20,980 bases of DNA. Source: a virus (Duplodnaviria; Heunggongvirae; Uroviricota; Caudoviricetes). Each line of letters starts with the position of its first letter. Within the stretch, counting starts at the first letter, position 1. A program made the translations under genes and the position numbers. The stretch lies in the IMG/VR virus record IMGVR_UViG_2695420487_000014, one strand, 5' to 3'. Shown one piece after another: positions 1 through 18,295 of this stretch. The notes beneath the pieces are model-generated. The model was not told where the DNA came from. It saw nothing but the letters and a program-made list of their open reading frames with translations, and did no database searches.

Positions 1-222
1 TCAGTATCTCGATAAGCGCAGAGAAATGATGCAGTGGTGGGCGGATTGGCTTGATGAAAAAGTGGAGTAATCCGGACCGTACTTCTTTATCCAGGCATAA
101 AGGCTGTGGGTGGTGATATCGAGACGTGTTGCAACGCTGGCAACAGAATAACCGCGATCAACAACCTGTTTGACTGCTTCAGTTTTAAACTCTTCGGGAT
201 AACGCTTACCGCTCATGGGCAC
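1..222 (-). CDS. IS3-family transposase OrfA-like protein (HTH N-terminus), 73-aa ORF whose stop sits at the window edge
   Basis: Translation MPMSGKRYPEEFKTEAVKQVVDRGYSVASVATRLDITTHSLYAWIKKYGPD has the helix-turn-helix N-terminus typical of IS3-family OrfA; GAGAGG Shine-Dalgarno 6-8 nt upstream of the ATG at 222; the last ~20 aa look unconserved and the remainder of the element lies outside the window. Confidence 0.55.
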   Translation of the reverse strand: MPMSGKRYPEEFKTEAVKQVVDRGYSVASVATRLDITTHSLYAWIKKYGPDYSTFSSSQSAHHCIISLRLSRY

Positions 223-270
223 CTCTCTTTAAGCCATCTTAAATGACTCTGAGGTGTCTGTTAAACCCGT
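223..270 (-). mobile_element. Probable left terminal region (inverted repeat) of the IS3-family element carrying the OrfA above
   Basis: On the minus strand the sequence begins TGAATCGCCACGG... (IS3-family ends typically start 5'-TG) and runs directly into the OrfA RBS/ATG; it abuts the point where IS2-like homology starts on the other strand. Confidence 0.35.
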
Positions 271-766
271 GGCGATTCAAAACTGCGTGTTACGTTCGCC
301 CTGGACTGTTGCGATCGTGAAGCCATAGACTGGGCCGCAAGCACGGGAGGTTACGATAAAGCGACAGTGCAGGATGTCATGTTAGGAGCGATAGAAAAAC
401 GCTTTGGCGATAAAGTACCGGAACAGTCCATCCAGTGGCTGACAGATAACGGTTCAGCGTATAGAGCGCATGAAACATGGCAGTTCGCCAGAGAGTTGAA
501 TCTGGAGCCCTGCACAACGGCAATCAGCAGTCCTCAGAGTAATGGAATGGCAGAAAGGTTCGTGAAAACGATGAAGGAAGACTACATCGCGTTCATGCCG
601 AAACCGAATGTAAGAACGGCATTGCATAATCTTGCAGTGGCGATCGAACATTACAATGAAAACCATCCGCACAGTGCGTTGGGTTATCGCTCTCCGCGAG
701 AATATCGACGTCAGCGGGTAACGTTAACTTAAGATACACCCCCTGTCTGGAAATAAGGGGGCAAGA
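271..766 (+). mobile_element. IS2-like (IS3 family, IS2 group) element, 3' remnant: transposase OrfB C-terminal DDE/rve domain plus right terminal inverted repeat
   Basis: Frame of ORF 367..732 extended upstream reads ...[42 protein letters not shown]...[21 protein letters not shown]...[16 protein letters not shown]...[14 protein letters not shown], co-linear with remembered IS2 InsD C-terminus (about 75 percent nt identity by eye); 3' end CTGTCTGGAAATAAGGGGGCAA resembles the IS2 right IR; the N-terminal ~180 codons and the orfA of this element are missing. Confidence 0.7.
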
Positions 767-773
767 ACAATGA

Positions 774-1526
774 TCAGATTCCCTGGTGAGTAAGAATTTT
801 ACTTTCTGAACTGCTCTGAGAGTATTGACTTGGAGAAACACCAAAATAACGTCTAAATACATAAGTAAAGTATGAGACACTGGCATAACCACAGACCTTA
901 GCTACTTTACTAATAGGATAACAACGAGTGCTGAGTAAATATTCAGCCATTTGCATCCTCTCATCAAGTATGATCTTACTGAATGATACCCCCTCTTCTT
1001 TCAATTTCCTCTTTAGTAAACTTTCGCTGAGATATAATCTTGATGATATATCCTTAAGACGCCATGGTGCAGATAAATCCGTATGAATAATCGTTTTAAC
1101 TTTAGCCCCTGTGCTTTTCAAACATTCAAACAGAAATACTCCAAATTGTTTTTCAGAAGAAAATGCAGAGAGACATGTAAAAGCAATAGACTCATCAAAA
1201 ATTTCTATGTATTCAGCACAGTGATTAGCCCAACTAATTAATCCTTTAATTAAACTGAAGTCAGCAAAGTTTATTTTTAAATAAGATGGATATTCCCTAC
1301 AATCAGAAATATCCCTTAAGTTATTAGCTTTCAAATAGCGACTAATAAACTCAGCGCCAAAATCCGCCACTATCACTCTTTCAGGATATGTCAGGAAAAA
1401 ATCTCTAGAGCTAGAGTCGACAAGTACAGATGAACCTCTCTCCAGAAACACACTCTCTTTTCCGAAATAAACATCAAAGGACTCCAAAATCAATATAACT
1501 GAACATGTAGTTGCCATATCATCCAC
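774..1526 (-). CDS. AraC/XylS-family transcriptional regulator (AppY/EnvY-like), low GC
   Basis: 250-aa ORF; C-terminus ...WRLKDISSRLYLSESLLKRKLKEEGVSFSKIILDERMQMAEYLLSTRCYPISKVAKVCGYASVSYFTYVFRRYFGVSPSQY is a canonical AraC double-HTH domain, roughly 50 percent identical to the remembered AppY C-terminus; AT-rich codon usage suggests horizontal acquisition; start could be M1 (1526) or M4 (1517). Confidence 0.8.
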   Translation of the reverse strand: MDDMATTCSVILILESFDVYFGKESVFLERGSSVLVDSSSRDFFLTYPERVIVADFGAEFISRYLKANNLRDISDCREYPSYLKINFADFSLIKGLISWANHCAEYIEIFDESIAFTCLSAFSSEKQFGVFLFECLKSTGAKVKTIIHTDLSAPWRLKDISSRLYLSESLLKRKLKEEGVSFSKIILDERMQMAEYLLSTRCYPISKVAKVCGYASVSYFTYVFRRYFGVSPSQYSQSSSESKILTHQGI

Positions 1527-2101
1527 CCAACTTAACTGAAACCAGGATGAAGTATATGCATATAAAGTTCACTTTGCCAAACTTCAATATAAAAAACCAC
1601 ATAAAAAATAGGGTGTGATAAAAAATACCGTAACAATAAAGCAAAGGATTATAAATTCCGTTACAGTTACAAATGATACTCAAGAAACAATTCCTTAGGA
1701 AAAACTTATTTACAGCCAATAAGTAAGACACTTATATGATATCAAGTTTTCATAAAACATAACTAGGCTAAATAGCTGCGCCTAATACCGCTACACTTTT
1801 GCCAGCCCATGTTTGCCTCCGGGTATTGACCCCTTCTCTACGCAACTTCAGTTCCCACCACCAACTTTGCGGCAGCTTTGTAGGATCAATGTCTAAAAGA
1901 ATAATGGTGACCGATAAGAAAACGACTGAATAACTGCAAATTTTCGCTCAAAACCTTCCTGTCAGATCCATAGCGAATCAAGTGCTGAATGTCACAGTAT
2001 CGAACAGAAAACAGTGACGATCTAACCCTTCAAGAATATTCTACGATTGTTCTGTTTAGGAAAAGCAAGGCGGGAAGTCGGGAGATAAGTCATTGATAAA
2101 G

Positions 2102-2163
2102 TGGCGGAGAGAGGGGGATTTGAACCCCCGGTAGAGTTGCCCCTACTCCGGTTTTCGAGACCG
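2102..2163 (-). tRNA. Partial tRNA-Ser gene (3' ~62 nt, serU-type, from anticodon stem through CCA): att-site remnant, not a functional tRNA
   Basis: Minus-strand sequence CGGTCTCGAAAACCGGAGTAGGGGCAACTCTACCGGGGGTTCAAATCCCCCTCTCTCCGCCA matches the 3' two-thirds of E. coli tRNA-Ser(CGA) from memory; the 5' acceptor/D-arm portion is absent (upstream sequence is unrelated). Confidence 0.7.
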
Positions 2164-2906
2164 ATGATACAGAGTCGAAAAATCAAAGAGTTAAAAATTT
2201 TTCTTGGAATAAATGTCTTTAAATCGTACACGAAAAATCAATGAATTACATAACATTAAAGAAGAATATTCCAAGCCTTCTTGAGGCTACCACCTGTTTT
2301 CAGGTGTCATTCAGACGTGATTTGCCCCAGATTGGGAAAGCACGCTTTTTTCTCAGCTATCGTCCTCTTATTTTGCCGTTACATTTCTTTTTGCACTCTA
2401 ATGATTAATTTACAATAATAATATCGGTAATTATTGAGTAATAATAAATTGATTATTGCAAATGTAATTTAATTCCATCTTAGCGTTATATTCCAATCTT
2501 TAATCTCCGCATGGAACAAGTTGCATGCGTGACTATATTAAGACAACTTATAACCACCAAAACATTTGCTTTGCAAGCAAAAACAGTGACCATTGACTCT
2601 AAGAAAATTCCGATCTATTGTTAGGGTCATCAAAGTTACTTAACAGTATTCCGAAATGAAAATACAAAGCAAGCTAATTGTCTTATTAAACATTATTATT
2701 GCATTTATATTATTTGAGCTTTTAGCTCAAAAATTTGGTTTGAGTACATTATTTTAAAGCAAGGTAAACAATATCGGGCACTCTAGTTTTTATAATTAAC
2801 AATTAAACGTCCATAAAATGTTATTTACTTTTCTTCGCTATTGTCACATCTTAATATAGTGGCTTACGCCACTCTACTTTCATCACATTTTGTACGTTTA
2901 TGTACT

Positions 2907-2941
2907 CGCCATGAAGCTCTTTCATGGCGATTTTTATTCTT
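2907..2941 (+). terminator. Strong rho-independent terminator hairpin (9-bp perfect stem CGCCATGAA/TTCATGGCG, 5-nt loop, then ATTTTTATTCTT)
   Basis: Perfect inverted repeat followed by a T-run on the plus strand only; lies in an ORF-free AT-rich region. Confidence 0.5.
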
Positions 2942-3021
2942 AATCCAAGAACATACTCCCTATCTATAGCAAAATCACTTTTTGAACAAAAGAATAACGT
3001 ATTTAGGTAATCATTACGAAT

Positions 3022-3603
3022 TTACCCTATAGGTGCTACTGGCCATTCAATATCCTGTGCAGTTGACGTATCAACACGGTTCAGCAATACCCGATACTTT
3101 TTCCAGGCTTCCAGCAACAAGGTTTCTTCCTCCGTTGCGATTTCCAGATCCACAGCATCCTGAAGCGGCGCTATATGCTCACTGGCTACCTGCATCAGGC
3201 TGTTTTTTGTTTCTTCCACCTCCCGGATCCGGAACAGTTTTTCTGCTTCCGTATCCTTCACCCAGGCTGTGCCGTTCCACTTCTGAAACTCCCCTTCCGG
3301 GGATAACCAGGTAACATTTTCCGGTAATGAGCCGAGTTCAGAAATAAATAACGCGTCCCCTGATGCCACGTCATAAACTGTTTTACCCCGATGGTCTTCA
3401 ACAAGATGCCACGATGACTCATCACTGTTGAAAACAGCCACGAAGCCAGCCGGAATATCTGGCGGTGCAATATCGGTACTGTTTGCTGGCAGACCTGTAT
3501 GAGGCGGAATATATGCATCACCTTCACCAATAAATTCATTAGTTCCGGCCAGCAGATTATAAATTTTTATGGTCCGTGGTTGTTCACTCATTCTGAATGC
3601 CAT
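3022..3603 (-). CDS. tfa: Tail fiber assembly protein (Tfa, lambda Tfa / P2 gpG family)
   Basis: 193-aa [43 protein letters not shown]...; start ATG overlaps the stf stop (TAATG) as in lambda stf-tfa. Confidence 0.9.
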
Positions 3604-4874
3604 TATGCAAGCCTCACAATATAGTTAAATGCGATGTTTTTGACGGTGTTTTCCGCGTTACCAGCAGCGTTAACGGTGATGGTGTGTCCGTGTGAGCCAA
3701 TCGCAACGGAGTGCGTATGAGCACCAATACCGACAGTATGTGCATGTGCGCCTGCGCTTGCAGCAGTGCCGGACAGCGAGTGGGTATGAGCACCATCTGA
3801 TGATGTCTTCCCTGCATTACGAGTCTGGCCACTACCGCTTGTTGTGCTCATAATCCCCGCGCTTAGATTTGAAATCGCGGTATAACCATTAGGGAAAATG
3901 CTCGTGTTCGTGCCACCAAATGCACCGGAACTCTTGTGTTGGTGCGCACCGGCACTATTTGCAGTCCCGCTAATACTATGGGTATGCGCCCCGGTGTTAT
4001 TCGTGGATTTGGTTCCGTAATCAAACGACGATGTGTTTTTCGTCCCCAAATCCGTACTGGATGCGCTGGCGCTGTGGGTGTGCGATTTAATGCCGTCCTG
4101 TTCCTGAGACAATACGGCACGACCACTGGCGGGTTTGCCCTTAATCGTCCAGCCACGCATATCAGGGATCACGGCTGACGGATAAGCGGCTGCAAGTTTC
4201 GGGTATGCAGATTTGTCAAAAGTCTGCCCCTGCATCAGGGCATAGCCAGACGGAACGGTATCTGATGGCCACGGGATTGGTGCGCCAGGCGGATAAAACT
4301 GCTCTGATGGCGTATAGAGTGAATAAACTGTACCGTCCGTTAACCCTTCCGGCTTATTAGCAGAATATGCTGGTGACGTATGAATCGTCACGCTGGCATT
4401 ACTGGTATAATCCCATTGAATATTTACACCAGTCGCATAATTTCCGATTGCAACGTAAATATCGTAAGTATCACCAGATGTATTGACCCAGGCAAAATTT
4501 GTAAACCCTGTCGATGTGCGCTGCCATAAAGCACCAGTAATCCCCTTCGGATTACCATTACCTGCACGCAAAACAAGTTCAGATATACCTGCCTGTTGAG
4601 GTGACCCCACGTTAAATCCCGCGCCACCAATCAACGTAATTGAAACAACAGAACTCGCCTGTGGCATGGTTACCGTTGCTAATTTGAACCAACCAGCACC
4701 ACCGCTGAATGACATTGTTGTTGAGTTAAGCGTACCAATATCTTTCGGCGTCAGTGTTATATCCGCTGAAAGCGCCTTACCATTCACCTTACGGGCAGAA
4801 GGTAGCCAGCTCATACGCGGCCTTAACGGCTTTTGGCGTTGCCGCCAGTGACTCGGAAGTGCTGTTAGTCGCAC
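3603..4874 (-). CDS. stf: Side tail fiber protein, C-terminal receptor-binding part (P2 gpH-like tip with HxH repeats); out of frame with the upstream stf segment
   Basis: ...[75 protein letters not shown]...GAHTHS...[49 protein letters not shown] is co-linear with the remembered P2 H C-terminus; frame differs from ORF 4789..6105. Confidence 0.85.
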
Positions 4875-6046
4875 TGCTGAGCTGTACTATCCCCTTTTTC
4901 GTCGTGCTCGCATCCTCAAGCGCCACGGCGGATGCAATATCCTCTGCCCGTTTTGCTGCTGTCTCGGCGCGCGTTGCCGCGGATTCCGCCGTACTTTTGC
5001 TCTGAGCTGCCGCCGTCGCACTGCCAGCTGCCTCTGTCGCCTTCGTGGATGCCGTCGTGGCGCTGCCCTTCGCTGCTGACGCCTGTCTGGTCGTCTCATC
5101 TTTTGAAGCAGACGCCGATGATGCCGATGACGCCGCCGAACTGGCTGACGATGCGGCAGCCGTTTTTGAGGATTCTGCGCTGGTTTCCGACGCTTTCGCG
5201 TTCGTTTCGGATGTCTTCGCTGCGGAAGCTGACCTCGCTGCTGCCGTGGCCTGTTCAGTGGCTTCGCCAGCCTTCGTTGTGGCTGTTGAAGCGGATGATG
5301 CGGCGCTTTCTGCCGACTTTCCGGCAGCGGTGGCACTGGCTGAGGCCTGCCCGGCATTTGTTGACGCGGCGCTGGCAGATGAGGCAGCCGCTGTTTTTGA
5401 GTCTGCTGCTGCGGAGGCACTCTGTGCTGCTGCCGTCTCAGAAGACTTAGCGTTCGTCTCGGACGTTTTTGCCGCCTTCGCGGAATTTCCTGCCGCTGTT
5501 GCCGAGGAGGCTGCACTACTGGCGCTCGAGGCTGCGCTCGTTTCTGATGATTTTGCCGCCTCTTTTGAGGCCGCCGCATCCCGGGCTGAGGTGGCAGCTT
5601 CTGACGCCTTCGTGGTCGCGGCGGATGCAGAAGTGGCTGCTGATTGTTGTGACGCTGCCGCATTCGTTTCTGACGTTTTCGCCGCAGCGGCACTGGTAGC
5701 TGCCGCGCTTTTTGAGGACTCTGCAGCAGCAGCACTTTTCGATGCTTCACTGGCCTTTGTTGATGCCGTTCCTGCGCTGGAAGATGCTGACTGAGCAGAT
5801 GATGCAGCCTGTCCGGCTGACGTGCTGGCGGCACGAGCTGAGCCTGCAGCATCGGTTGTATGAGTTGCCGCCTCACTGGCAGATGTGCTGGCATCACTGG
5901 CTGACTTCTTCGCGGCTGCCGTGTTCTGTGCCACTGCGGACGCGTTACGCGCCACCTCTTCCACCATCAGTTCAAAACGGCGCAGAGCCTCCGGACGGGC
6001 ATCATCCTCCGTCATGGCACCGAGAAAATCATTCAGCGTACCGGGT
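4789..6046 (-). pseudogene. stf: Side tail fiber protein, central Ala/Ser-rich shaft segment (lambda Stf-like), 5'-truncated at a deletion junction and 3'-frameshifted
   Basis: ...[40 protein letters not shown]...AKTSETNAAASQQSAATSA...[29 protein letters not shown] matches lambda Stf from about residue 95 onward; the first ~20 codons of the called ORF ([20 protein letters not shown]) are Nu1 DNA read out of frame. Confidence 0.8.
4890..5900 (-). repeat. GC-rich low-complexity coding repeat (Ala/Ser/Thr-rich stf shaft; reiterated AKTSETNA / SSASSA motifs)
   Basis: Reiterated GCn/TCn-rich codon blocks visible in the sequence; generates long spurious ORFs in five other frames. Confidence 0.6.
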
Positions 6047-6406
6047 CCGCGACAACACGAAAGTACAGAATGCGGTTTCCACCACTTCAGCGGAGTCTCT
6101 GGCATTCTTCAGTTCCTGTGCGTCGGCCTGCGCACGCGTAAGTCGATGGCGTTCGTACTCAATAGTCCCTGGCTGGAGATCTGCCTCGCTGGCCTGCCGC
6201 AGTTCTTCAACCTCCCGGCGCAGCTTTTCGTTCTCAATTTCAGCATCCCTTTCGGCATACCATTTTATGACGGCGGCAGAGTCATAAAGCACCTCATTAC
6301 CCTTGCCACCGCCTCGCAGAACGGGCATTCCCTGTTCCTGCCAGTTCTGAATGGTACGGATACTCGCACCGAAAATGTCAGCCAGCTGCTTTTTGTTGAC
6401 TTCCAT
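6047..6406 (-). pseudogene. nu1: Terminase small subunit Nu1, N-terminal 120 codons (winged-helix cosB-binding domain), fused out of frame to stf by deletion
   Basis: [120 protein letters not shown] matches remembered lambda Nu1 residues 1-120, then diverges (TRYAE stop). Confidence 0.85.
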
Positions 6407-6409
6407 TGT

Positions 6410-6600
6410 TCATTCCACGGACAAAAACAGAGAAAGGAAACGACAGAGGCCAAAAAGCTCGCTTTCAGCACCTGTCGCTTCCTTTCTTTTCAGAGGGTAT
6501 TTTAAATAAAAACATTAAGTTATGACGAAGAAGAACGGAAACGCCTTAAACCGGAAAATTTTCATAAATAGCGAAAACCCGCGAGGTCGCCGCCCCGTAA
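6410..6600 (-). other. cos: cos site: cosN 12-nt cohesive-end sequence (GGGCGGCGACCT on the minus strand at 6584..6595) and cosB between cosN and the nu1 start
   Basis: Minus strand reads ...GATCCGACAGGTTACG GGGCGGCGACCT CGCGGGTTTTCGCTATTTATGAAAATTTTCCGG..., matching lambda right end / cohesive end / left end from memory. Confidence 0.75.
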
Positions 6601-6794
6601 CCTGTCGGATCGCCGGAAAGGACCCGCAAAATGATAATAATTATCATCTACATGTCACAACGTGCATCTACGCCATCAAACCACGTCAAATAATCAATTA
6701 TGACGCAGGTATCGTATTAATTGATCTGCATCAACTTAACGTAAAAACAACTTCAGACAATACAAATCAGCGACACTGAATACGGGGCAACCTC

Positions 6795-6989
6795 ATGTCT
6801 ACGAAGAACAGAACCCGCAGAACAACAACCCGCAACATCCGCTTTCCTAACCAAATGATTGAACAAATTAACATCGCTCTTGAGCAAAAAGGGTCCGGGA
6901 ATTTCTCAGCCTGGGTCATTGAAGCCTGCCGTCGGAGACTAACGTCAGAAAAGAGAGCATATACATCAATTAAAAGTGATGAAGAATGA
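6795..6989 (+). CDS. ylcI: Small prophage protein, YlcI-like (DUF3950), 64 aa
   Basis: MSTKNRTRRTTTRNIRFPNQMIEQINIALEQKGSGNFSAWVIEACRRRLTSEKRAYTSIKSDEE; position between cos and bor as in DLP12. Confidence 0.6.
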   Translation: MSTKNRTRRTTTRNIRFPNQMIEQINIALEQKGSGNFSAWVIEACRRRLTSEKRAYTSIKSDEE

Positions 6990-7153
6990 ACATCCCGCGT
7001 TCTTCCCTCCGAACAGGACGATATTGTAAATTCACTTAATTACGAGGGCATTGCAGTAATTGAGTTGCAGTTTTACCACTTTCCTGACAGTGACAGACTG
7101 CGTGTTGGCTCTGTCACAGGCTAAATAGTTTGAATGATTAGCAGTTATGGTGA

Positions 7154-7360
7154 TCAGTCAACCACCAGGGAATAATCCTTCATATTATTATCGTGCTTCA
7201 CCAACGCTGCCTCAATTGCTCTGAATGCTTCCAGAGACACCTTATGTTCTATACATGCAATTACAACATCAGGGTAACTCATAGAAATGGTGCTATTAAG
7301 CATATTTTTTACACGAATCAGATCCACGGAGGGATCATCAGCAGATTGTTCTTTATTCAT
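7154..7360 (-). CDS. ybcW: Small prophage protein, YbcW-like, 68 aa
   Basis: [68 protein letters not shown]; GGAG Shine-Dalgarno upstream of the ATG at 7360. Confidence 0.55.
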
Positions 7361-7645
7361 TTTGTCGCTCCATGCGCTTGCTCTTCATCTAGCGGTTAAA
7401 ATATTACTTCAAATCTTTCTGTATGAAGATTTGAGCACGTTGGCCTTACATACATCTGTCGGTTGTATTTCCCTCCAGAATGCCAGCAGGACCGCACTTT
7501 GTTACGCAACCAATACTATTAAGTGAAAACATTCCTAATATTTGACATAAATCATCAACAAAACACAAAGAGGTCAGACCAGATTGAAACGATAAAAACG
7601 ATAATGCAAACTACGCGCCCTCGTATCACATGGAAGGTTTTACCA

Positions 7646-8056
7646 ATGGCTCAGGTTGCCATTTTTAAAGAAATATTCGATCAAGTGCGAAAAGATTTAA
7701 ACTGTGAATTGTTTTATTCTGAACTAAAACGTCACAACGTCTCACATTATATTTACTATCTAGCCACAGATAATATTCACATCGTGTTAGAAAACGATAA
7801 CACCGTGTTAATAAAAGGACTTAAAAAGGTTGTAAATGTTAAATTCTCAAGAAACACGCATCTTATAGAAACGTCCTATGATAGGTTGAAATCAAGAGAA
7901 ATCACATTTCAGCAATACAGGGAAAATCTTGCTAAAGCAGGAGTTTTCCGATGGGTTACAAATATCCATGAACATAAAAGATATTACTATACCTTTGATA
8001 ATTCATTACTATTTACTGAGAGCATTCAGAACACTACACAAATCTTTCCACGCTAA
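7646..8056 (+). CDS. ybcV: YbcV-like protein (DUF1398), 136 aa from the ATG with the best RBS (ORF is open from 7523)
   Basis: [50 protein letters not shown]...; GGAAGG Shine-Dalgarno ~10 nt upstream of the ATG at 7646; the upstream in-frame GTG/ATG starts lack an RBS. Confidence 0.6.
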
Positions 8057-8346
8057 ATCATAACGTCCGGTTTCTTCCGTGTCAGCACCGGGGCGTTGGC
8101 ATAATGCAATACGTGTACGCGCTAAACCCTGTGTGCATCGTTTTTAATTATTCCCGGACACTCCCGCAGAGAAGTTCCCCGTCAGGGCTGTGGACATAGT
8201 TAATCCGGGAATACAATGACGATTCATCGCACCTGACATACATTAATAAATATTAACAATATGAAATTTCAACTCATTGTTTAGGGTTTGTTTAATTTTC
8301 TACACATACGATTCTGCGAACTTCAAAAAGCATCGGGAATAACACC

Positions 8347-8640
8347 ATGAAAAAAATGCTACTCGCTACTGCGCTGGCCCTGCTTATTACAGGATGTGCT
8401 CAACAGACGTTTACTGTTCAAAACAAACCGGCAGCAGTAGCACCAAAGGAAACCATCACCCATCATTTCTTCGTTTCTGGAATTGGGCAGAAGAAAACTG
8501 TCGATGCAGCCAAAATTTGTGGCGGCGCAGAAAATGTTGTTAAAACAGAAACCCAGCAAACATTCGTAAATGGATTGCTCGGTTTTATTACTTTAGGCAT
8601 TTATACTCCGCTGGAAGCGCGTGTGTATTGCTCACAATAA
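8347..8640 (+). CDS. bor: Bor lipoprotein (serum-resistance-associated outer membrane lipoprotein), 97 aa
   Basis: MKKMLLATALALLITGCAQQTFTVQNKPAAVAPKETITHHFFVSGIGQKKTVDAAKICGGAENVVKTETQQTFVNGLLGFITLGIYTPLEARVYCSQ matches lambda Bor; lipobox LITGC; oriented opposite to the lysis genes as in lambda. Confidence 0.9.
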   Translation: MKKMLLATALALLITGCAQQTFTVQNKPAAVAPKETITHHFFVSGIGQKKTVDAAKICGGAENVVKTETQQTFVNGLLGFITLGIYTPLEARVYCSQ

Positions 8641-8671
8641 TTGCATGAGTTGCCCATCGATATGGGCAACT

Positions 8672-9133
8672 CTATCTGCACTGCTCATTAATATACTTCT
8701 GGGTTCCTTCCAGTTGTTTTTGCATAGTGATCAGCCTCTCTCTGAGGGTGAAATAATCCCGTTCAGCGGTGTCTGCCAGTCGGGGGGAGGCTGCATTATC
8801 CACGCCGGAGGCGGTGGTGGCTTCACGCACTGACTGACAGACTGCTTTGATGTGCAACCGACGACGACCAGCGGCAACATCATCACGCAGAGCATCATTT
8901 TCAGCTTTCGCATCAGCTAACTCCTTCGTGTATTTTGCATCGAGCGCAGCAACATCACGCTGACGCATCTGCATGTCAGTAATTGCCGCGTTCGCCAGCT
9001 TCAGTTCTCTGGCATTTTTGTCGCGCTGGGCTTTGTAGGTAATGGCGTTATCACGGTAATGATTAACAGCCCATGACAGGTAGACGATGATGCAGATAAC
9101 CAGAGCGGAGATAATCGCGGTTACTCTGTTCAT
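8672..9133 (-). CDS. Rz: Spanin inner-membrane subunit Rz (i-spanin), lambda type
   Basis: [80 protein letters not shown]... nearly identical to remembered lambda Rz; ATG at 9133 overlaps the R stop (ATGA). Confidence 0.9.
8731..8913 (-). CDS. Rz1: Spanin outer-membrane lipoprotein subunit Rz1 (o-spanin), embedded in Rz in the +1 frame
   Basis: [60 protein letters not shown] matches lambda Rz1; lipobox VVGC and proline-rich stalk. Confidence 0.85.
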
Positions 9134-9627
9134 TGCTGACCCCACAAACAGATTTCACGCTCAATCTCACGACGAGTCATGAGACCTTTCCATTGCTTAC
9201 CGCCAGCATATGTCCAGCGACGTAGCTGATCACATGCGCCTTTGATATCGCCCTGGTTTATTTTGCGAAGAAGCGTCGATGTTCTGAAATTGCCAGCACC
9301 CACGTTGTAAACGAATGAGTAAAGAGCGCCGCGCGTTGTTTCCGGTATATCGACTTTGATGTACGGGTTAATTTGTCTGGCGACAGTGGCAAGGTCTTTA
9401 TTCAAGAGTGCTTTGCATTCTGCTTTGGTATACGTTTTACCGAGCATGATGTCTTTTCCGGTGTGTCCGTGACATACAGTCCATACGCCAACGATATCTT
9501 TGTATGGTACGTAGCTGACACCTTCCAGACCATCGTTACCACTTGGGCCAGTAATTAACACTGATGCTATAGCAATTGCTCCGCCACCAATAGCAGCAGC
9601 AACGGCTTTTCGTAATGATGGAGGCAT
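9130..9627 (-). CDS. R: SAR endolysin (T4-lysozyme-family muramidase with N-terminal signal-anchor-release domain), phage 21 R / DLP12 RrrD type
   Basis: [57 protein letters not shown]...; Gly/Ala-rich weakly hydrophobic N-terminal SAR helix; ATG overlaps the holin stop (TAATG). Confidence 0.9.
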
Positions 9628-9842
9628 TATTCACCTCTCGCAGCCTTGCGCTTATCTTCTTTAATCTTGAAATAAAGGTTTGTCAGGTACGTCAGCAGGC
9701 CAAATACCAGGCTACCCAGCACACCTATTGCTGCCCACTGTGAGGGCGTGACTTTATCGAGCAGCTGTAAAAACCAGTAACCGGCACTACCTGCTGAGGT
9801 GCCATAGGCGACACCCGTTGTTAACTTATCCATGGATTTCAT
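9627..9842 (-). CDS. S: Pinholin (class II holin, phage 21 S21 / DLP12 EssD type), 71 aa with dual-start motif (M1, M4)
   Basis: [71 protein letters not shown]; the called ORF extends to 9887 but the conserved start is the ATG at 9842. Confidence 0.85.
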
Positions 9843-10429
9843 AACCCCACCTCGCAGACAAAGCGGGTGTAAATTGAGGGAATACAACGTATCGCAAAAA
9901 AGCAGAAACTTAACAGACTCGGAGTCAGTGAATAACTCAGGTATTGGGTTATCAGCTAATATCGAGACTCAAAAAATGGAAAAACCCGCTCGACGGCGGG
10001 TTTAAGCTGTGTGACGAAGTAACCACTCTTAACAGCATAACCAATTTTTTACGTACGTAAACCACTAAATGATATTTGCGAGAATGCTACCGAGTATTGA
10101 AAACACCACTACAAATACATAAGCAAATCTCAACAAATAACCAACAAATAATTTCCAGCGTTATTTTTAGCTGGTTTAAATTGAATCTTCAAATTATAGA
10201 GCACTTATAAATAACAGCCATTAATATAAATTGGCTAATAGATTTATTTTTATTCAGCCAAGAGCCATGAATAGGATTCGATAGAAAAAGTTCAGATAAA
10301 AATAGAGATCTACTTCACAAATCAAATGAGAAACCAAAACTTACATCTTGAAATAATCACATTGATTAGATGAATATTTATCGCGCAGTGACATCATTTT
10401 TTAATAATAGTTCAAAAAAAGGGCTCACG

Positions 10430-11512
10430 ATGAAAAAATTAACAGTGGCAATTTCTGCTGTAGCTGCATCAGTACTGATGGCGATGTCTGCTCAGGCAGC
10501 TGAAATTTATAATAAAGACAGTAACAAGCTGGATCTGTACGGGAAAGTTAATGCTAAGCACTACTTCTCCTCTAATGATGCAGATGATGGTGATACTACT
10601 TATGCCCGTCTTGGGTTCAAAGGTGAAACCCAAATCAACGATCAACTGACTGGTTTCGGTCAGTGGGAATATGAATTCAAAGGCAACCGCGCTGAATCTC
10701 AAGGTTCCTCCAAAGATAAAACCCGTCTTGCCTTCGCTGGCCTGAAATTCGGTGACTACGGCTCCATCGATTATGGCCGTAACTACGGTGTAGCATACGA
10801 TATTGGTGCATGGACCGACGTTCTGCCAGAATTCGGTGGCGATACCTGGACCCAAACAGATGTATTCATGACTGGTCGCACCACAGGTGTTGCAACTTAT
10901 CGTAACAATGACTTCTTTGGTCTGGTTGATGGTCTGAACTTTAGTGCTCAGTATCAGGGTAAAAATGACCGCACTGACGTAACTGAAGCTAATGGTGATG
11001 GTTTCGGTTTCTCCACTACTTATGAGTATGAAGGATTCGGTGTAGGTGCAACCTATGCTAAATCTGACCGCACTAATAATCAGGTTATCTACGGTAACAA
11101 CAGCCTGAATGCATCTGGTCAAAATGCTGAAGTATGGGCAGCTGGTCTGAAATATGATGCGAACAACATCTATCTGGCTACCACCTATTCTGAAACCCAG
11201 AACATGACTGTTTTTGGTAATAACCATATTGCCAACAAAGCACAAAACTTCGAAGTAGTTGCACAATATCAGTTCGACTTCGGTCTGCGTCCGTCCGTTG
11301 CTTACCTGCAATCTAAAGGAAAAGACTTGGGTGCGTGGGGTGATCAGGACCTGGTTGAATATATTGATGTAGGTGCAACCTATTACTTCAACAAAAATAT
11401 GTCCACTTTTGTTGATTACAAAATCAACCTGATTGATAAGAGCGATTTCACGAAAGCATCTGGCGTTGCTACCGATGATATCGTTGCTGTAGGTATGGTT
11501 TACCAGTTCTAA
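10430..11512 (+). CDS. nmpC: Outer membrane porin NmpC/OmpD family (OmpC paralogue), apparently intact
   Basis: [23 protein letters not shown] signal peptide, then [24 protein letters not shown]... and C-terminal ...[12 protein letters not shown] (terminal Phe beta-barrel signature); located between Q and S on the opposite strand as in DLP12. Confidence 0.9.
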
Positions 11513-11649
11513 TTTGATTACTAAAAGATATGTTGCGGGAGGCTTTGCCTCCCCAACATATAAGTGGCTCCCTCCAGCCACTTCCTTTAGGAGCACAACC
11601 TTGCTTCTAACTATATAAACCTTCTGTTATATATTACCCTTTATTTTTG

Positions 11650-11674
11650 GGGGCGTCTCAACGCCCCATTTTTA
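11650..11674 (+). terminator. Rho-independent terminator (GGGGCG-TCTCAA-CGCCCC followed by ATTTTTAATAATTTTT), probably the nmpC transcript terminator
   Basis: 6-bp GC stem, 6-nt loop and T-run, ~140 nt downstream of the nmpC stop. Confidence 0.5.
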
Positions 11675-11700
11675 ATAATTTTTAGTAAACAATTGGCATA

Positions 11701-12084
11701 TTAATTAGAGTTATTAACAACGATATCCATCTCTAACCGGATATCTAATGCCATTAACATCCCTTCAATTATACCCTCAGCCTTCTGTAACCTTTTCCCG
11801 ATATAACCATCAGAGCAGCAATGCTTACCTGCCAGTGACATGAATGTCATACCGACTACATAATAATCTACTAATAAATCGTGCAAATCGCTGTTGTTCT
11901 TTTTCAGACGGGCCATGCACCCGCAAATGATCATCGCGTCATCGTCACAACATTGCGGGCGAGATTTTACTTTTGAAGTAATTAATCCCTTAAAACCGGC
12001 GGCAATGGACGACCAGGTCACATCTTCATGATTATTAGCCGCCCACGCTCCCCAACGCTCAAGAACCATCTGAATATCACGCAT
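11701..12084 (-). CDS. quuD: Late-gene antiterminator Q (phage 82 / DLP12 QuuD type), 127 aa
   Basis: [94 protein letters not shown]...; GGAG Shine-Dalgarno 8 nt upstream of the ATG at 12084 (the called ORF starts at an upstream TTG). Confidence 0.85.
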
Positions 12085-12169
12085 CAACTTACTCCACAAA
12101 AATCAGACCAGAACGCCAATTACAAGCAAAAATCAATAAAACAGTATTAGTTGATTGTTATCTCTGACT

Positions 12170-12310
12170 TCATACTCCTGCTCCTGTCAGGGTTTTGGCG
12201 TAATTCCTCAGTATTCGGTAATCGGTCAAAACAGAACTGGGGAAACGATATAAGCGCAGGCGCATCCAGCGGTGGCGAAGAAGTTCTGCCATATTAAACT
12301 CAAACATCAT
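12170..12310 (-). CDS. ylcG: Small nin-region protein, YlcG-like, 46 aa
   Basis: [46 protein letters not shown]; start overlaps the rusA stop; recalled as present between rusA and quuD in DLP12. Confidence 0.45.
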
Positions 12311-12669
12311 TCATTCCCCATTTCGGTGATGGTCAGTTCCAGCCTCCCACCTTTGGTAACAGGCATCTTCACAACGCGGTAATCAACGACCTGAGCATCA
12401 TCCAGCCAGAAACCTGCTTTGGTGAGTGCGTCAAAAGCGGCTTTTTGCAGATTATCCAGGTCACGGCGACGGCGATCCGGCATGTGGCACTCAATACGGA
12501 TTTTCACTGGCATAGCCAGGCCGATATCCAGCATTGCGTTTTTAATGATTCGGGTGACGTTATCGCGGTATGCCTGCCCTTCTGCGCTGATGTGTGTGCG
12601 CCCGCGATTATGGCGGTAATAGCGATTATTGCTCGGAGGCCAGGGTAATGTGATGCTGTAGGTATTCAC
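12307..12669 (-). CDS. rusA: Holliday-junction resolvase RusA
   Basis: [120 protein letters not shown]; GTG start overlapping the ybcO stop (GTGA). Confidence 0.9.
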
Positions 12670-12956
12670 GCCTTAATAACCCCCTCTTTCAGCCAGATAA
12701 CCTGTGTTCTCGCCATACCTTCCAGCGCGCATTCTTTTGCATATGCAGCATCGACAAAATGTGTGCGGCGGTCGATTTCGTCGTGGCAGGCAGAACATGC
12801 AATGGTGGCAATCAGGTCTGGCGGTTTCGTACCGGTGCCGCACAATCCAGTCAGCCGGATATGTGCCAGTACAGACGTTTCAGGGTTGCCATTACATACG
12901 CCAGGGATTCTTACCTGGCATTCCCGACCACGCGCTGCTTTTCTCAAATCAGCCAT
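12666..12956 (-). CDS. ybcO: YbcO-like nin-region protein (DUF1364; Cys-rich putative nuclease), 96 aa
   Basis: [96 protein letters not shown]; the called ORF extends upstream to 12995. Confidence 0.75.
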
Positions 12957-13119
12957 GACTCCTCCTTGCTGCCAGTCGCAACCATTTTTTATCAACCAGG
13001 CTGGCGGTATATCCGAGCAGTGTTGGTATTTCGGAAGGCTTCAGCTCCGGTTTACGCTTACGACGATTTGGTACTCTGTAGATGTGTCCGTTCATGACAC
13101 GAATAAGCGGTGTAGCCAT
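12949..13119 (-). CDS. ninE: NinE-like protein, 56 aa (below the ORF-track size cutoff)
   Basis: [56 protein letters not shown]; ATG shares a base with the ybcN stop (TAATG); 3' end overlaps the ybcO start. Confidence 0.65.
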   Translation of the reverse strand: MATPLIRVMNGHIYRVPNRRKRKPELKPSEIPTLLGYTASLVDKKWLRLAARRSHG

Positions 13120-13574
13120 TACGCCTCCTGTTTGTCGCGGAGCTGCTGGAACTCGCAGCTCTGCGGAATAGTCAGGTGGCAGCCAATATTCACCGCCCAG
13201 GCTTCAACCTTACACAGGAAGATATACATCTCTCCGGTATCAAGATCGGAGGTATGGCGTAACGACTGGATAGTAGTGATTTCGCCGGTTACGACATCAA
13301 CCAGGTCCTTGGTTTCATAACCGAGGTATGTGTGTTTGAGAGCATCTTTTACCCATGCTGCGGTAGCGAACGATTTCCCCCTGCTGATGAGGTATTCACT
13401 GATTTCGCTGTACCACATGTGGCTGAGTGCATTCTGGGAAAGACTGCGTTTCTCACGCCACGGTTTAAGCACCATGCGAAAGCATTTTCCGTCCTCCAGA
13501 TAAGGCTGGATCTGCTGGCCGATAGCGGTGAAGTTACCGCGATGCAGTTTGATGCCATCTTGTGGTAGGTTCAC
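13119..13574 (-). CDS. ybcN: YbcN-like nin-region protein (DUF1367), 151 aa
   Basis: [69 protein letters not shown]...; GTG start. Confidence 0.8.
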
Positions 13575-13672
13575 GCTTCACCTCCGCAGAGGTCAGACGC
13601 TGGATGCAAAAAATCGCAGGTGCATTTCTGCATCTGTGAAGGGAGAAGAGAGTTTGGATTGTATGTGCGCAT
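13571..13672 (-). CDS. ylcH: Small ORF, YlcH-like, 33 aa
   Basis: [33 protein letters not shown]; its stop overlaps the ybcN GTG start (GTGA); assignment rests on recollection of a short gene upstream of ybcN in DLP12. Confidence 0.35.
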
Positions 13673-13764
13673 AAACGTCCCCGTTTAGCGCAGAAGTCAC
13701 CGGAGTTGTTCAAGCTCCGATGACTTTATTATTACGAATTGATTTTACAAAATCAAAAGGTATG

Positions 13765-14217
13765 TTAGTGACGCGGGTCTGTTATTATGCGAGAAGGGTT
13801 TCCGTATAAAACAAGGACCTTACTTCCTTGAGTAAATAACGGATCTTTGCCTTGAACAATGGTCATTAAATTCCCATTCTCAGTTTCGACAACATATTCC
13901 ATGCCTGTTTGTTTTGTTGCTGAAGATTCGATTGCTGCCCCGGCAATACCACCAATGACTGCACCACCAACGGCACCAACGATATTAGAACGAACTCCCC
14001 CACCAAGCGCAGAACCAGCGGTTGCCCCCACGGCAGCCCCAGCAGTCCCGCCTAACGCGGAAGTCCCACTGATATCAACCCCCCTAGCACTAATAACTGT
14101 ACCAGCGATAGTTCGATTAACCATGCCCACAGAGCCAACAGAATAACTATTTGGCGATATATTTTGTGCGCATCCAACCAACACTAAGAGTGGAGCAATT
14201 ACGAATAATCGCTTCAT
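13765..14217 (-). CDS. Outer-membrane lipoprotein with glycine-zipper domain, SlyB/Pcp-like, 150 aa
   Basis: Lipobox LVGC; central Gly/Ala zipper GGTAGAAVGATAGSALGGGVRSNIVGAVGGAVIGGIAGAAI; C-terminal ...GNLMTIVQGKDPLFTQGSKVLVLYG parallels the SlyB C-terminal beta segment; ATG overlaps the stop of the upstream lipoprotein gene (ATGA). Confidence 0.7.
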   Translation of the reverse strand: MKRLFVIAPLLVLVGCAQNISPNSYSVGSVGMVNRTIAGTVISARGVDISGTSALGGTAGAAVGATAGSALGGGVRSNIVGAVGGAVIGGIAGAAIESSATKQTGMEYVVETENGNLMTIVQGKDPLFTQGSKVLVLYGNPSRIITDPRH

Positions 14218-14774
14218 TTAGCTACCCTAACAGGAAACATTGGACGAGAAAGATCAACACTTTCTAATGCTTGCAAGAACTGCGTTATGTTGTTTTGCAC
14301 CGCGCGATTAACAGATTCGCGTGCTCGAACAATACCGTAGAATGCGTAACTGGCTGGAACAGTACCGGTAGACTCAATATCCTGCGTATATATAATATCA
14401 CCATTCGCACGGTTGATTATTTCATACCTTGCAATTGCTTTAGTTGTCATTGAAACACCAAAAGCAGGAACGTCAAGAGCCAACACTTTAACATTTAAGC
14501 TAACCGTATTTGGTGAACTATCACGAAAAATAGTCATTCGGTCGAGTGCTTCCTGCAAAGATTCACGCCAAATTGGAGTTATAGCCTCCATACCAGCAGT
14601 GATATCCCCTTTCTGCTCATCTGGACGAGCAAGTGATACCGTTAATGACTTAATTTCAGCATCTATTTTTTTCTGGCTAACTCCCACGTTAGGTGTTGAA
14701 AAATTCAATGGTGGCACACTAGCGCAACCTGTTAAAGAACCAATAATCATGGCTAATAATATTATCTTCTTCAT
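14214..14774 (-). CDS. Lipoprotein of unknown function, 186 aa (first gene of a two-lipoprotein operon)
   Basis: MKKIILLAMIIGSLTGCASVPP... with lipobox LTGC; AAGG Shine-Dalgarno 6 nt upstream; translationally coupled to the SlyB-like gene. Confidence 0.7.
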   Translation of the reverse strand: MKKIILLAMIIGSLTGCASVPPLNFSTPNVGVSQKKIDAEIKSLTVSLARPDEQKGDITAGMEAITPIWRESLQEALDRMTIFRDSSPNTVSLNVKVLALDVPAFGVSMTTKAIARYEIINRANGDIIYTQDIESTGTVPASYAFYGIVRARESVNRAVQNNITQFLQALESVDLSRPMFPVRVAK

Positions 14775-15030
14775 AAATTTACCTTATTGTTATAACCAAA
14801 GGAATTATAAAGTAAAAAAGTTCACTATCACTAGCCATTAACGACATCAATTTCAGAGAAACATGGTACTCATTTCCACAAATTTGACACAAGTCATTTT
14901 CACCTACATATTCCATCATACTTGATGCATATGTTATTGAAGCCTCTATCCTATCCGTTCATAATAGCAATAGTTACCCGGGTGATAGTACCTCTATGAT
15001 TACTCGTCTTTCTGATTGATTGGATTAAAT

Positions 15031-15222
15031 ATGCGCGCCAAAATTTATCAACTTTCGTTATGGATATTTATTTCGTTTCTAGCGATCTATGCCTTTATTA
15101 TCTATAAAGGTTCTTATATTGGAGTAGCATTGCATCAAATTGCTTGGATCATCATTATTGCCTCTGGCTTGATTGCTAGGCTAACTAAACCAAAGCAAAA
15201 ACCAATTTCGTCCAATAATTAG
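15031..15222 (+). CDS. Possible small two-helix membrane protein, ~63 aa from the ATG (ORF open from TTG at 15016)
   Basis: MRAKIYQLSLWIFISFLAIYAFIIYKGSYIGVALHQIAWIIIIASGLIARLTKPKQKPISSNN: two hydrophobic helices and a basic tail; divergent from the lipoprotein operon; weak RBS and AT-rich, so it may be a chance ORF. Confidence 0.3.
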   Translation: MRAKIYQLSLWIFISFLAIYAFIIYKGSYIGVALHQIAWIIIIASGLIARLTKPKQKPISSNN

Positions 15223-15379
15223 ACATGTATTAAAAAAATGATATTTTTATGTACATAGTCTATTGAAAATTGCCGCGATAAAATGCCAACACCCGCTTCA
15301 TCGCGGCACTCTGGCGACACTCCTTGAAAATCAGATTCGTGCTCACCTTTCCTTCCCGTTCTTCCCTGGTAGCGAACCG

Positions 15380-15827
15380 GTAATCATCCGATCTGCGTTA
15401 CCGAGTGGATGGATGAATGCCGCCGCGAACCATTCAAAACCCGCGAAGGCAGAGAAATTACGGGGCCGTGGCAGTCGCATCCCAAACGGATGTTACGGCA
15501 TAAAGCCATGATTCAGTGGCCCGTCTGGCCTTCGGATTTGCTGGTATCTATGACAAGGATGAAGCCGAGCGCATTGTCGAAAATACCGCATACACCGCAG
15601 AACGTCAGCCGGAACGCGACATTACTCCGGTTAACGATGAAACCATGCAGGAGATTAACACTCTGCTGATTGCCCTGGACAAAACATGGGATGACGACTT
15701 ATTGCCGCTCTGTTCCCAGATATTTCGCCGCGACATTCGCGCATCGTCAGAACTGACACAGGCCGAAGCAGTGAAAGCTCTTGGATTCCTGAAACAGAAA
15801 GCCACTGAGCAGAAGGTGGCAGCATGA
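15380..15827 (+). pseudogene. bet: Recombination protein Bet (lambda RecT-like), C-terminal ~150 codons only, with a 1-bp deletion frameshift near 15517
   Basis: NHPICVTEWMDECRREPFKTREGREITGPWQSHPKRMLRHKAMIQ in one frame and ARLAFGFAGIYDKDEAERIVENTAYTAERQPERDITPVNDETMQEINTLLIALDKTWDDDLLPLCSQIFRRDIRASSELTQAEAVKALGFLKQKATEQKVAA in the next, together matching remembered lambda Bet; upstream of ~15380 homology is lost. Confidence 0.85.
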
Positions 15828-15880
15828 CACCGGACATTATCCTGCAGCGTACCATCGATTGTGCTGACACTGCTGGATGA
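15824..15880 (+). pseudogene. exo: Exonuclease Exo 5' stub (first ~10 codons MTPDIILQRT, then unrelated sequence and a stop after 18 codons)
   Basis: ATG overlaps the bet stop in the lambda arrangement (GCAGCATGACACCGG); downstream sequence does not continue as exo. Confidence 0.5.
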
Positions 15881-16302
15881 ACGGGAAAGAAACCAGCAGT
15901 ACATCAAACGCCGCGACCAGGAGAACGAGGATATTGCGCTAACGGTGAGGAAACTGCGTGTTGAGCTGGAGACAGCAAAAATCAAAACTCAACGAGCAGC
16001 GTGAGTAGAAGGTGTTATCTCGGATGGAAGTAAGCGTATTGCTGAAATGGAGGCCTGGGTTGAATACACAAGAGCTGCATACGTAAGAGCAAAAGACAAG
16101 GGAGATTTGATCAGAGTTATTACCCGACAACCAACGGGATTTTACGCTTACGTACCATGTAATTAGGAATCCTTGAAGTGGCAGCCTAACTGCGGATACA
16201 CTGAAATGGCGATTTGGTAACATGTTTCGCACAAGGCTGTTACTACGCTTAAAGATAATCAGCCATGATTAAACGCTTTGTAAAAAGTAAAAGGAAATTA
16301 CA

Positions 16303-16917
16303 ATGAAAAAATCAATACTAATTTTAGGGCTTACGTTAATTGTCTCATCTCAAATACCATCGGCAATGGCAAAAAATGAATCAAGACTTTGGGTTGTTGT
16401 TGATCGAACGGAAAGACATACCTGCCCTTCAAGTAAATGTGGAGTGGCTGGGAAACTATTTTTCAGGGAAGGCGTAGATTTTCTAGAAAAAAAAGGTGAA
16501 TGGGTTCGTATAACTGAGCCATATTCAGCCTCATGTGTGGGAGGGGAAAGCGAATATATTAAAGAAGGTAATAAATCCTGCACAAGAAAAAACGGAATCG
16601 TCAATGGCAAGTTTTCAGAATGGGTTAAACTTAGTGATCTTAGCAGTGAAAGGCCATCAGATCCTGCTGAAAATGCGAGCGGAGATGATACTTTAATCAA
16701 AGGATCTGATGACTACCGTATATACAAAAAAGAGTTTTCTTCGGCAGCTAGGAAGTTAATAAACGAAGGGGTCTGCACGGAAAGCGACTTTAAGGAAATC
16801 GGAGGGTGGATGGCATCAAGCAATAAGGGGAAAAACATCTATTTCACATATTGCGGAGGAATGACGTTGTCGAACAGAATATACCTAGACGTTAAAAGTG
16901 GAAAGACTTTTAGATAA
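16303..16917 (+). CDS. Secreted protein of unknown function, 204 aa, low GC, Cys-containing
   Basis: Signal peptide MKKSILILGLTLIVSSQIPSAMA (AMA then K, SPase I type, no lipobox); 8 Cys in the mature part; N-terminal segment RLWVVVDRTERHTCPSSKCGVAGKLFFREGVDFLEKKGEWVRI is SH3b-like by eye. Confidence 0.6.
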   Translation: MKKSILILGLTLIVSSQIPSAMAKNESRLWVVVDRTERHTCPSSKCGVAGKLFFREGVDFLEKKGEWVRITEPYSASCVGGESEYIKEGNKSCTRKNGIVNGKFSEWVKLSDLSSERPSDPAENASGDDTLIKGSDDYRIYKKEFSSAARKLINEGVCTESDFKEIGGWMASSNKGKNIYFTYCGGMTLSNRIYLDVKSGKTFR

Positions 16918-16988
16918 TATGATATTACCAATGACAGTATTAATTTAATGCCTCCATAGAATTATCTCTAGGAAGTATGTATAAGAAA

Positions 16989-17025
16989 AGCCCGCACAAT
17001 GAGCTGCTGCGGGCTTTGTGTTATT
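16989..17025 (+). terminator. Probable rho-independent terminator of the 204-aa gene (8-bp stem AGCCCGCA/TGCGGGCT, then TTGTGTTATT)
   Basis: Inverted repeat plus T-rich tail ~70 nt downstream of the stop. Confidence 0.45.
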
Positions 17026-17577
17026 CGCCATATTTTATGAAGCAAATACGACACTATAGATAATTAAGCGTTGCTGGTTGTCGATTCCTCACTCACTCCT
17101 GTTGATGGCTCTCTTCTTGTATGTGCCATTGAAGGGTAATATCGAGTAAAAAGATACCGGAAGTATCCGCGCCGCCATGATTGTCTTTCTCCTAATGCAG
17201 GAAAAGCAGAATGGCTAAATCATCAGCAGAGCGCAAAGTCGATCAGAGAGCCAAGCAAGCATCATCCGGTATGCGTAAGCTGGAGCTTGTACTTGATGCT
17301 CAGGAAATTGAAATGCTGGATCGTAACTGAGCCACGCGCCGCTTCAGGCATGCGCCTTACGAGTTTGGTGAGTACATCGCGTTACTGAGCCGCCAGGATG
17401 ATGCACGTGTGCGCTAGCGTATAAAATCGATCAGCAGAAAACGTTGCGGTAAGTGCGGCGAGAGAGTTCCTGTTAATTCATGCCCGTGTAATGGTGACTC
17501 ACAATGCTGGGTGACCAAAGGCTGGCACGAAACAAAATTAATGATATAAATCTCTGTGACATGTCACGGAGGCGGCA

Positions 17578-18006
17578 ATGAAATTAGACCAGCAATATCT
17601 AAAAGATCTACTTATCGCATTCGAAAAAACTCATGGCCCTGACACGATGCTTAGTGAACTAGAGGATAATGGCTTTAATAGATATGACCAAAATTTTATT
17701 TTCCATATGCGATTATTATGCGACTACGAATTAATAGTCAGGGTTGATGGAAAACCTGGGTTCGGTCATATAATGTCCAACGAGTTAGGGGAAGGTGTTG
17801 GATATAGTTGGATCGAAGTACCACTGAGGTTGACAGCAAGAGGGCATGATTTTATTGCTGACTTGCGTCAAAAGGAGGTCTGGCAAACTATAAAAACAAA
17901 CTTTAAGGATGAGGGAATTAGTACACTAATAAGTGTTTCAAAATCACTAGCAAAAGGCTTTGCAAGGAAAAAGATAAAAGATATTACAGGAATAGATATT
18001 GAATAA
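17578..18006 (+). CDS. Cytoplasmic protein of unknown function, 142 aa, low GC (possible DUF2513-like fold)
   Basis: MKLDQQYLKDLLIAFEKTHGPDTMLSELEDNGFNRYDQNFIFHMRLLCDYELIVRVDGKPGFGHIMSNELGEGVGYSWIEVPLRLTARGHDFIADLRQKEVWQTIK...; no signal peptide; GGAGG Shine-Dalgarno upstream of the ATG. Confidence 0.6.
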   Translation: MKLDQQYLKDLLIAFEKTHGPDTMLSELEDNGFNRYDQNFIFHMRLLCDYELIVRVDGKPGFGHIMSNELGEGVGYSWIEVPLRLTARGHDFIADLRQKEVWQTIKTNFKDEGISTLISVSKSLAKGFARKKIKDITGIDIE

Positions 18007-18271: not shown

Positions 18272-18295
18272 GCGTGTAATTGCGGAGACTTTGCG

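Follow-up and report, generated by a model that had tools for sequence, protein, structure and literature searches.

The window, which is the whole 20,980-nucleotide stretch of viral DNA analyzed here, lies in the closest complete genome, that of strain 23CRST021, between bioA-ybhB and ybhC, and it differs from that genome by 7 mismatches over the first 15.5 kb and thereafter by an indel. A core search located an exact lambda att core (GCTTTTTTATACTAA) at positions 19636-19650, adjoining int and ybhC, and a second lambda core, with one mismatch, stands by ybhB, some 225 bp outside the left end of the window. The presence of lambda cores on both sides places window positions 1-19650, including the junction described below, inside a prophage. 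The prophage's own integration module occupies 18492-19650 on the plus strand and consists of a lambda-type int gene (18492-19562; 356 aa) and the core by ybhC. The prophage is a heavily deleted DLP12-like element that retains essD, rrrD, rzpD, bor, ybcV, ybcW and a fragment of nohD fused to a tail fiber remnant. Its late and lysis region is DLP12-like, yet it occupies the lambda attachment site with lambda-type int/xis and not argU. The head genes are all gone, as are most of the tail genes, and the nohD fragment joins the truncated tail fiber gene directly (6046-6047). An intact porin gene at 10370-11512 (plus strand) is annotated as ompC in the closest genome; K-12 DLP12 carries nmpC there in two gene fragments, split by an IS5.

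The opposite end of the prophage is a succession of short, unlike segments. Two transposase fragments at 70-732 (70-216 on the minus strand and 280-732, annotated "integrase core domain," on the plus strand) form the outer edge of a cassette shared with other genomes; homology to the copy of this cassette in Escherichia coli O157:H7 begins at position 296. They are followed by a gene for a 247-aa AraC-family, PatE-like regulator (774-1517, minus strand), a passenger that always accompanies the junction, and by a 56-bp terminal stub of an IS630-family element (1768-1823), which matches the ends of IS630-family elements in many genomes at 98%. Beyond the stub lie 278 bp of chromosomal flank (1824-2101), the tRNA fragment (2102-2163, minus strand) and a 195-bp phage arm (2164-2358), and these lead into AT-rich noncoding DNA (2359-3021; GC content, 0.28 to 0.33) with no open reading frame of at least 60 aa. 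The latter is contiguous with the arm in elements linked to a serU integrase, and the segment 2445-3030 is also found 3' of tfa genes in other prophages. The last structural gene of the phage on this side of the junction is the tail fiber assembly gene tfa (3022-3603, minus strand), identified from the open reading frame list and from how RefSeq annotates the closest genome. It is preceded by a frameshifted tail fiber gene remnant without its N terminus (3603-6045, minus strand, by annotation), fused at 6046/6047 to the nohD fragment, and homology to K-12 DLP12 resumes at 6046. The only Rfam match in the window at the gathering score, IS009 (3062-3260, minus strand, 218 bits), falls wholly within the tfa open reading frame, suggesting that this "sRNA" family corresponds to coding or pseudogene sequence of prophage tfa genes (the K-12 tfaD/tfaX region). 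A lambda-core-like sequence in L001, matching the core at 13 of 15 positions, was set aside, as its equivalent in the window (1584-1598) has three mismatches, which is the level expected by chance.

The initial annotation had identified an orphan 3' fragment of a serU-type tRNA-Ser gene, running from the anticodon stem to the CCA end, and both its identity and its limits proved exact. Aligned on the minus strand, positions 2102-2163, which read CGGTCTCGAAAACCGG...CTCTCCGCCA, are identical at 62/62 positions to the 3' part of serU, the tRNA-Ser(CGA) gene of BL21(DE3). ARAGORN places the whole BL21(DE3) gene, with anticodon cga, at 4203-4292 of the sequence used (L002), the matching part being 4203-4264. 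The fragment begins at the CCA end (2102) and ends in the anticodon stem (2163), of whose 5' strand it covers four bases, and therefore includes the CGA anticodon loop. At position 2164 the window has A and serU has G, and past this point the two sequences are unrelated. That no complete tRNA is present was likewise borne out: ARAGORN found 0 tRNA genes in the whole window, and Rfam gave no tRNA match in the window, either at the gathering score or at an E value of 1 or below. Nor was the match weakened by comparison with serU and its flanks. The 62 nt alone give an E value of 2e-22 against 28 Gb of sequence, far beyond chance, and homology to the serU locus continues for a further 278 bp on the CCA side (1824-2101).

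The fragment lacks the 5' acceptor strand and the D arm and thus the complete cloverleaf of a functional tRNA-Ser. We considered whether it might nevertheless be expressed as a functional tRNA-like or tRNA-half RNA. Its T arm and variable arm are intact, and Rfam reports a subthreshold match to a tmRNA T-arm segment in this region; however, the upstream DNA that drives serU is missing together with the 5' acceptor strand and D arm, neither ARAGORN nor Rfam calls the fragment, and a change in the anticodon stem is tolerated in phage mEp332. Expression of this kind therefore has next to no chance of being correct. The change in mEp332 (L009) is a C-to-G substitution at the equivalent of window position 2162 (GACGG for GACCG), as would fit a fragment free of selection as a tRNA. 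A second subthreshold Rfam match, to the "Plastid-psbI-rps4 3'UTR" family (2105-2156, plus strand, 40.9 bits, E = 3.5e-7), is antisense to the tRNA fragment; our guess is that it reflects the likeness of that family to an antisense serine tRNA and is biologically meaningless here. The fragment does not function as a tRNA, and in all likelihood its sole contribution is to the 340 bp that are homologous to the serU locus.

These 340 bp, the flank and the fragment together, are present at the serU locus in 5,423 of 5,426 complete E. coli genomes, and alignment to the BL21 and 95NR1 serU loci shows that the flank natively lies downstream of serU toward yodB. Comparison with the resident serU locus of strain 23CRST021 gave 332/340 identical positions. 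All 8 differences fall within window positions 1876-1954, in the distal 80 bp of the flank, and the 210 bp nearest the tRNA are the same in the orphan and resident copies. The bases by which the orphan differs can be found in other lineages (L049 and L054) at true serU flanks. On the other side of the fragment, the arm is common to genuine serU attR sites. The serU-resident prophage of strain 95NR1 has, in order, yodB, the flank, the 62-nt fragment, the same arm, nleC, a tail fiber gene, lom and J, and many further genomes match exactly 1824-2358 or 2164-2358, the matches to serU-resident prophages ending at 2358.

The integrase that would act on this arm could be recognized in viral contigs. 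In contigs L053, L055 and L061, 52 bp separate the fragment and arm from the 3' end of an open reading frame of 341 aa belonging to the Phage_integrase family (PF00589). In complete genomes that are serU lysogens, the same integrase gene adjoins a full tRNA-Ser, which is the attL arrangement. A single alignment sets side by side attB (BL21), an attP-like form (L055), attR (95NR1) and the window copy; the attL form stands outside that alignment and is known from the integrase context in complete genomes. The window, the true 95NR1 attR and the attP-like contig L055 share one boundary of the identity block, in agreement with the earlier proposal that the segment is the attR-side duplicate left by a tRNA-targeting integrase. 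Two substitutions in the L055 copy are absent from the window, from mEp332, from the O157 copy and from the true attR, which fits the expectation that attR keeps the displaced bacterial copy. The orientation, too, had been read correctly, with element DNA on the high-coordinate side and chromosomal flank on the low-coordinate side. The window thus contains a 3' identity block of a tRNA gene, native chromosomal DNA on the CCA side of this block and an arm shared with integrase-bearing attP and attL forms; the junction is not, however, the boundary of an element whose opposite end bears the whole tRNA gene and its cognate int. Judged from these alignments, positions 1824-2358 are a complete attR-type junction of a lambdoid phage with a serU-specific tyrosine integrase, in which the 62 nt represent the identity block (core plus B' half) and 2164-2358 the P arm.

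The proposal that the region is a composite which once belonged to an element integrated at a tRNA-Ser gene was well founded. Besides the arm common to serU prophage ends, window positions 2085-4807 are 99.7% identical to contig L061, in which the integrase is linked. The same composite structure offers a reasonable explanation for the change in composition around 2.1-3.0 kb, as the mosaic boundaries align with the composition steps. The initial annotation had further placed flanking DNA on the AraC/IS side. This stands for the 278 bp of serU flank only, after which come the IS630-family stub and unrelated AT-rich DNA. At the joint of stub and flank (1823/1824), which reads GTTTGCCTCCGGG/TATTGACCCC, comparison of the joined sequences found no bases common to both sides. 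The outer end of the IS faces the AraC gene, and its cut interior abuts the serU flank. This orientation rules out a plain insertion of the IS beside the flank and indicates a deletion or illegitimate joint rather than an insertion site.

The reading of the fragment in the initial annotation is that a second mobile element integrated at a tRNA-Ser gene at this position and decayed to its attR alone. The shape and orientation of the fragment are indeed those of an attR. However, the window contains no 5' half of a tRNA-Ser gene and no serU-type integrase; its sole integrase is the lambda-type enzyme, which is 22% identical to the serU-type enzyme. Chromosomally, this is the attachment site of lambda, with ybhB and ybhC to either side, and the fragment is situated about 2.3 kb inside the att-bounded prophage, not at its edge. 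The flank, moreover, comes from the serU locus at a different map position. In 23CRST021, serU is intact and unoccupied (mtfA, tRNA-Ser, yodB), about 1.2 Mb from the junction, and the same block is found in free phages and at thrW in O157:H7. A second, vestigial integration at this place is therefore contradicted by the sequences and very improbable.

The distribution of the cassette among phages and genomes bears on its age. The lambdoid phage mEp332 (PV340541.1) carries window positions 1-4286 at 98.3% identity, in a stretch that starts some 230 bp from the lambda-type P arm and core of the phage and runs through the AraC gene, the IS630 stub, the flank, the fragment, the arm and tfa into the tail fiber gene; its int end is lambda-type. 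This phage has lambda immunity, is plaque-forming and is maintained as a lysogen of K-12 (PMC3442831). The whole of window 2050-3030 is also present, at about 99% identity, in phages PhiR70_1 and ev099. Among complete genomes, the AraC gene and IS630 stub are found in 645/5,426, and the AraC-side DNA, flank, fragment and same arm occur together in 101/5,426. The junction is unannotated in RefSeq and phage records, where the features are "none" or "hypothetical protein," and our literature searches found no description of it. K-12 DLP12 was rejected as a source: its tfaX-appY region shares no DNA homology with window 733-3040, and the only serU copy in K-12 is the real one. In two strains with a prophage at the att-lambda site, 13P477T (L012) and Z1323CEC0003 (L013), an IS1 lies by the AraC gene where homology to the window stops (at about 1723), and the IS630 stub is unmatched. 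In 13P477T, tfa and tail genes follow the IS1. The annotation of Z1323CEC0003 passes from the IS1 straight to the porin gene, and the serU junction, tfa, the tail fiber remnant and the lysis genes are absent from it.

This distribution also bears on whether the junction arose by a chromosomal rearrangement in the lineage of this strain, in which a serU prophage and an att-lambda prophage recombined or an inversion took place, with deletions thereafter. Lambdoid prophages do recombine readily (PMC2669165), and the close identity of the tail fiber end of the window to a serU-integrase-linked element is what such an exchange would leave. Against this, only 278 bp of serU flank are present, ending at the IS stub, and in the closest genome serU and its surroundings are intact and collinear. 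Since the identical arrangement occurs in a plaque-forming phage and in 101 complete genomes, it predates this strain, and we regard a rearrangement within its lineage as improbable.

The cassette is not always joined to the same arm. In O157:H7 strain F8952, window positions 296-2164 recur at 99.25% identity within the prophage cluster at thrW, with a lambdoid remnant on one side and a P4-like element on the other; homology ends at the inner edge of the fragment, and a different arm continues from there. Among IMG/VR contigs, the IS630/flank joint is present in 30 and the fragment/arm joint in 27, and both are present in only 8; some cassettes there are joined to two arm types other than that of the window. 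In all, the cassette with this one IS630/flank joint occurs fused, where the anticodon stem has its inner edge, to no fewer than three different arms, ATGATAC..., ACCCGATC... and GTCCAATC.... The alternative arm of the O157:H7 type was also observed in a prophage at the ssrA site (strain HS-C, L011, about 5001-5020); the comparison covered L005 from 8431 onward as well. Of serU, only some 18 nt of the anticodon stem-loop (CGGTTTTCGAGACCGGTCC) stand before the arm in the ssrA prophage; the 3' portion of the tRNA and the serU flank are both absent, and the core at the HS-C ssrA site is a second kind of displaced serU core. Two other IMG/VR contigs, L050 and L056, carry the 62-nt fragment and arm with nonchromosomal DNA of a "CCATCC..." type on the CCA side, a DUF6387 gene and no integrase. 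The arm side of L056 has open reading frames matching a cytolethal-distending-toxin A/C domain and the endonuclease/exonuclease/phosphatase family. The arrangement in L050 and L056 may represent tandem elements at serU.

The occurrence of one cassette, with an identical IS630/flank joint, next to at least three unrelated arms that all begin at the crossover position raises the question of whether the captured core is still used, either as a secondary attachment site that moves with the cassette or as a patch of homology, 340 bp long, through which serU-type phages recombine with prophages at other loci. Such use would be compatible with the origin that we favor below, and a precedent exists in Sp10 and Rac, where a resident attR served as attB in tandem integration (PMC2669165). 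On the other hand, homologous recombination with ordinary serU attR regions gives the same pattern of arms. The roughly 210 bp nearest the core are invariant, so the pattern of single-nucleotide differences fits integrase-mediated and homologous exchange alike, and no cognate integrase is present in the window. We hold continued use of the core to be unlikely. It is only tentatively that we suggest that serU integrases, or RecA acting on the 340-bp patch, swap arms at the core and so move the PatE-like cassette among prophages at att-lambda, thrW and elsewhere. If this were true, such swapping could drive rearrangements between those loci and serU.

The AraC-family protein encoded at 774-1517 is identical at 245/247 positions to the copy in the thrW prophage cluster of O157:H7 F8952 and is 29% identical to K-12 AppY. 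Its best NCBIfam likeness, to YdeO/GadX, is below the cutoff, and the source records name it only "AraC family." PatE (z0321, in OI-8) has been placed at the location of the thrW prophage of O157:H7 (PMC10877973). From this location, the window gene may be PatE (z0321 of OI-8 in EDL933). Prophage-borne AraC-like regulators at the tail fiber/att end include PatE, PsrA and PsrB of O157:H7 and AppY of DLP12 (PMC10877973, PMC10057817). Compared with these, the window gene has the same prophage-end position, and its identity to the copy in the thrW prophage of O157:H7 is 99%. An origin of the PatE-like gene in the neighborhood of serU is possible but by no means certain.

Taken together, these observations make it very probable that the feature is a relocated serU attR scar with its host flank, carried as passenger DNA in the b region of phages, and that it originated by capture elsewhere. 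In a viable phage, host DNA is contiguous with the att junction, and the joint between host and nonhost DNA is illegitimate. The history probably began with a lambdoid phage resembling L061, carrying a serU-specific tyrosine integrase, that integrated into the serU anticodon loop in some other E. coli strain. Integration would have shifted the 3' portion of the tRNA gene native to serU to the far (tail fiber) end of the prophage, giving the order phage arm, 62 nt and host flank that is found at 1824-2358. Illegitimate recombination would then have linked the attR and at least 278 bp of host DNA to internal sequence of an IS630-family element beside the PatE-like AraC gene, perhaps through aberrant excision of the lambda-bio type or through a double crossover of an infecting phage with a resident prophage and its flank. 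The product would have become part of the nonessential b region of phages using lambda int/att, with a lambda-type int/att module replacing the original serU-type module, and the window would show one such phage, now the degraded DLP12-like prophage at the lambda attachment site. We infer the order of these events, and the aberrant-excision step among them, from the arrangement of the parts. No intermediate, either the cassette beside a complete serU or a full-length IS630 at the joint, was found among the sampled genome and IMG/VR matches. Because the serU-type int/xis appear to have been replaced rather than simply deleted, at least one recombination beyond a single aberrant excision is needed.

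The feature is an ordinary tRNA-derived att scar and an ordinary product of lambdoid mosaicism, to be explained by existing mechanisms. What sets it apart is only its displacement, the identifiable host DNA still attached to it and its presence in a viable phage. A partial tRNA gene inside a prophage thus need not record integration at that place, and because att scars can be inherited as cargo, prophage-boundary callers and surveys of integration sites can be misled where they depend on tRNA fragments. The junction offers a clean natural fossil of the capture of host DNA beside an att site, in a lambdoid phage that is still viable, and the position of the scar beside a regulator of the PatE/AppY type bears on how passenger genes gather at the tail fiber/att end of lambdoid phages.

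The nearest known counterpart is the attR of a prophage at a tRNA site, exemplified by the lambdoid prophages at serU in 95NR1 and by the record "Escherichia phage SerU-LTIIb." The window copy and these have the same block from anticodon stem to CCA end, with flank on the CCA side and an arm opposite that is common to attP and attL forms bearing the cognate tyrosine integrase. In contrast to such an attR, the window copy is off the tRNA locus, inside a prophage with a different integrase and a different chromosomal site. K-12 offers further parallels in the annotated pseudo-tRNA attachment remnants at CP4-6 and DLP12. Specialized transducing phages of the lambda-bio type are formed by aberrant excision. 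Like them, the captured junction has host DNA contiguous with attR in a packaged genome, by the tail fiber/b region, and a far joint that is illegitimate; unlike them, it has only 278 bp of noncoding host DNA, its int/xis appear to have been replaced by a lambda-type module, and the event itself is a reconstruction. A third comparison is with Sp10, which lies next to Rac through tandem integration using the resident attR as attB (Asadulghani et al. 2009, PMC2669165). The attR core was able to recombine there, and the cassette described here is likewise found joined to several arms at the crossover position, where its core would be a candidate for such use by an integrase.
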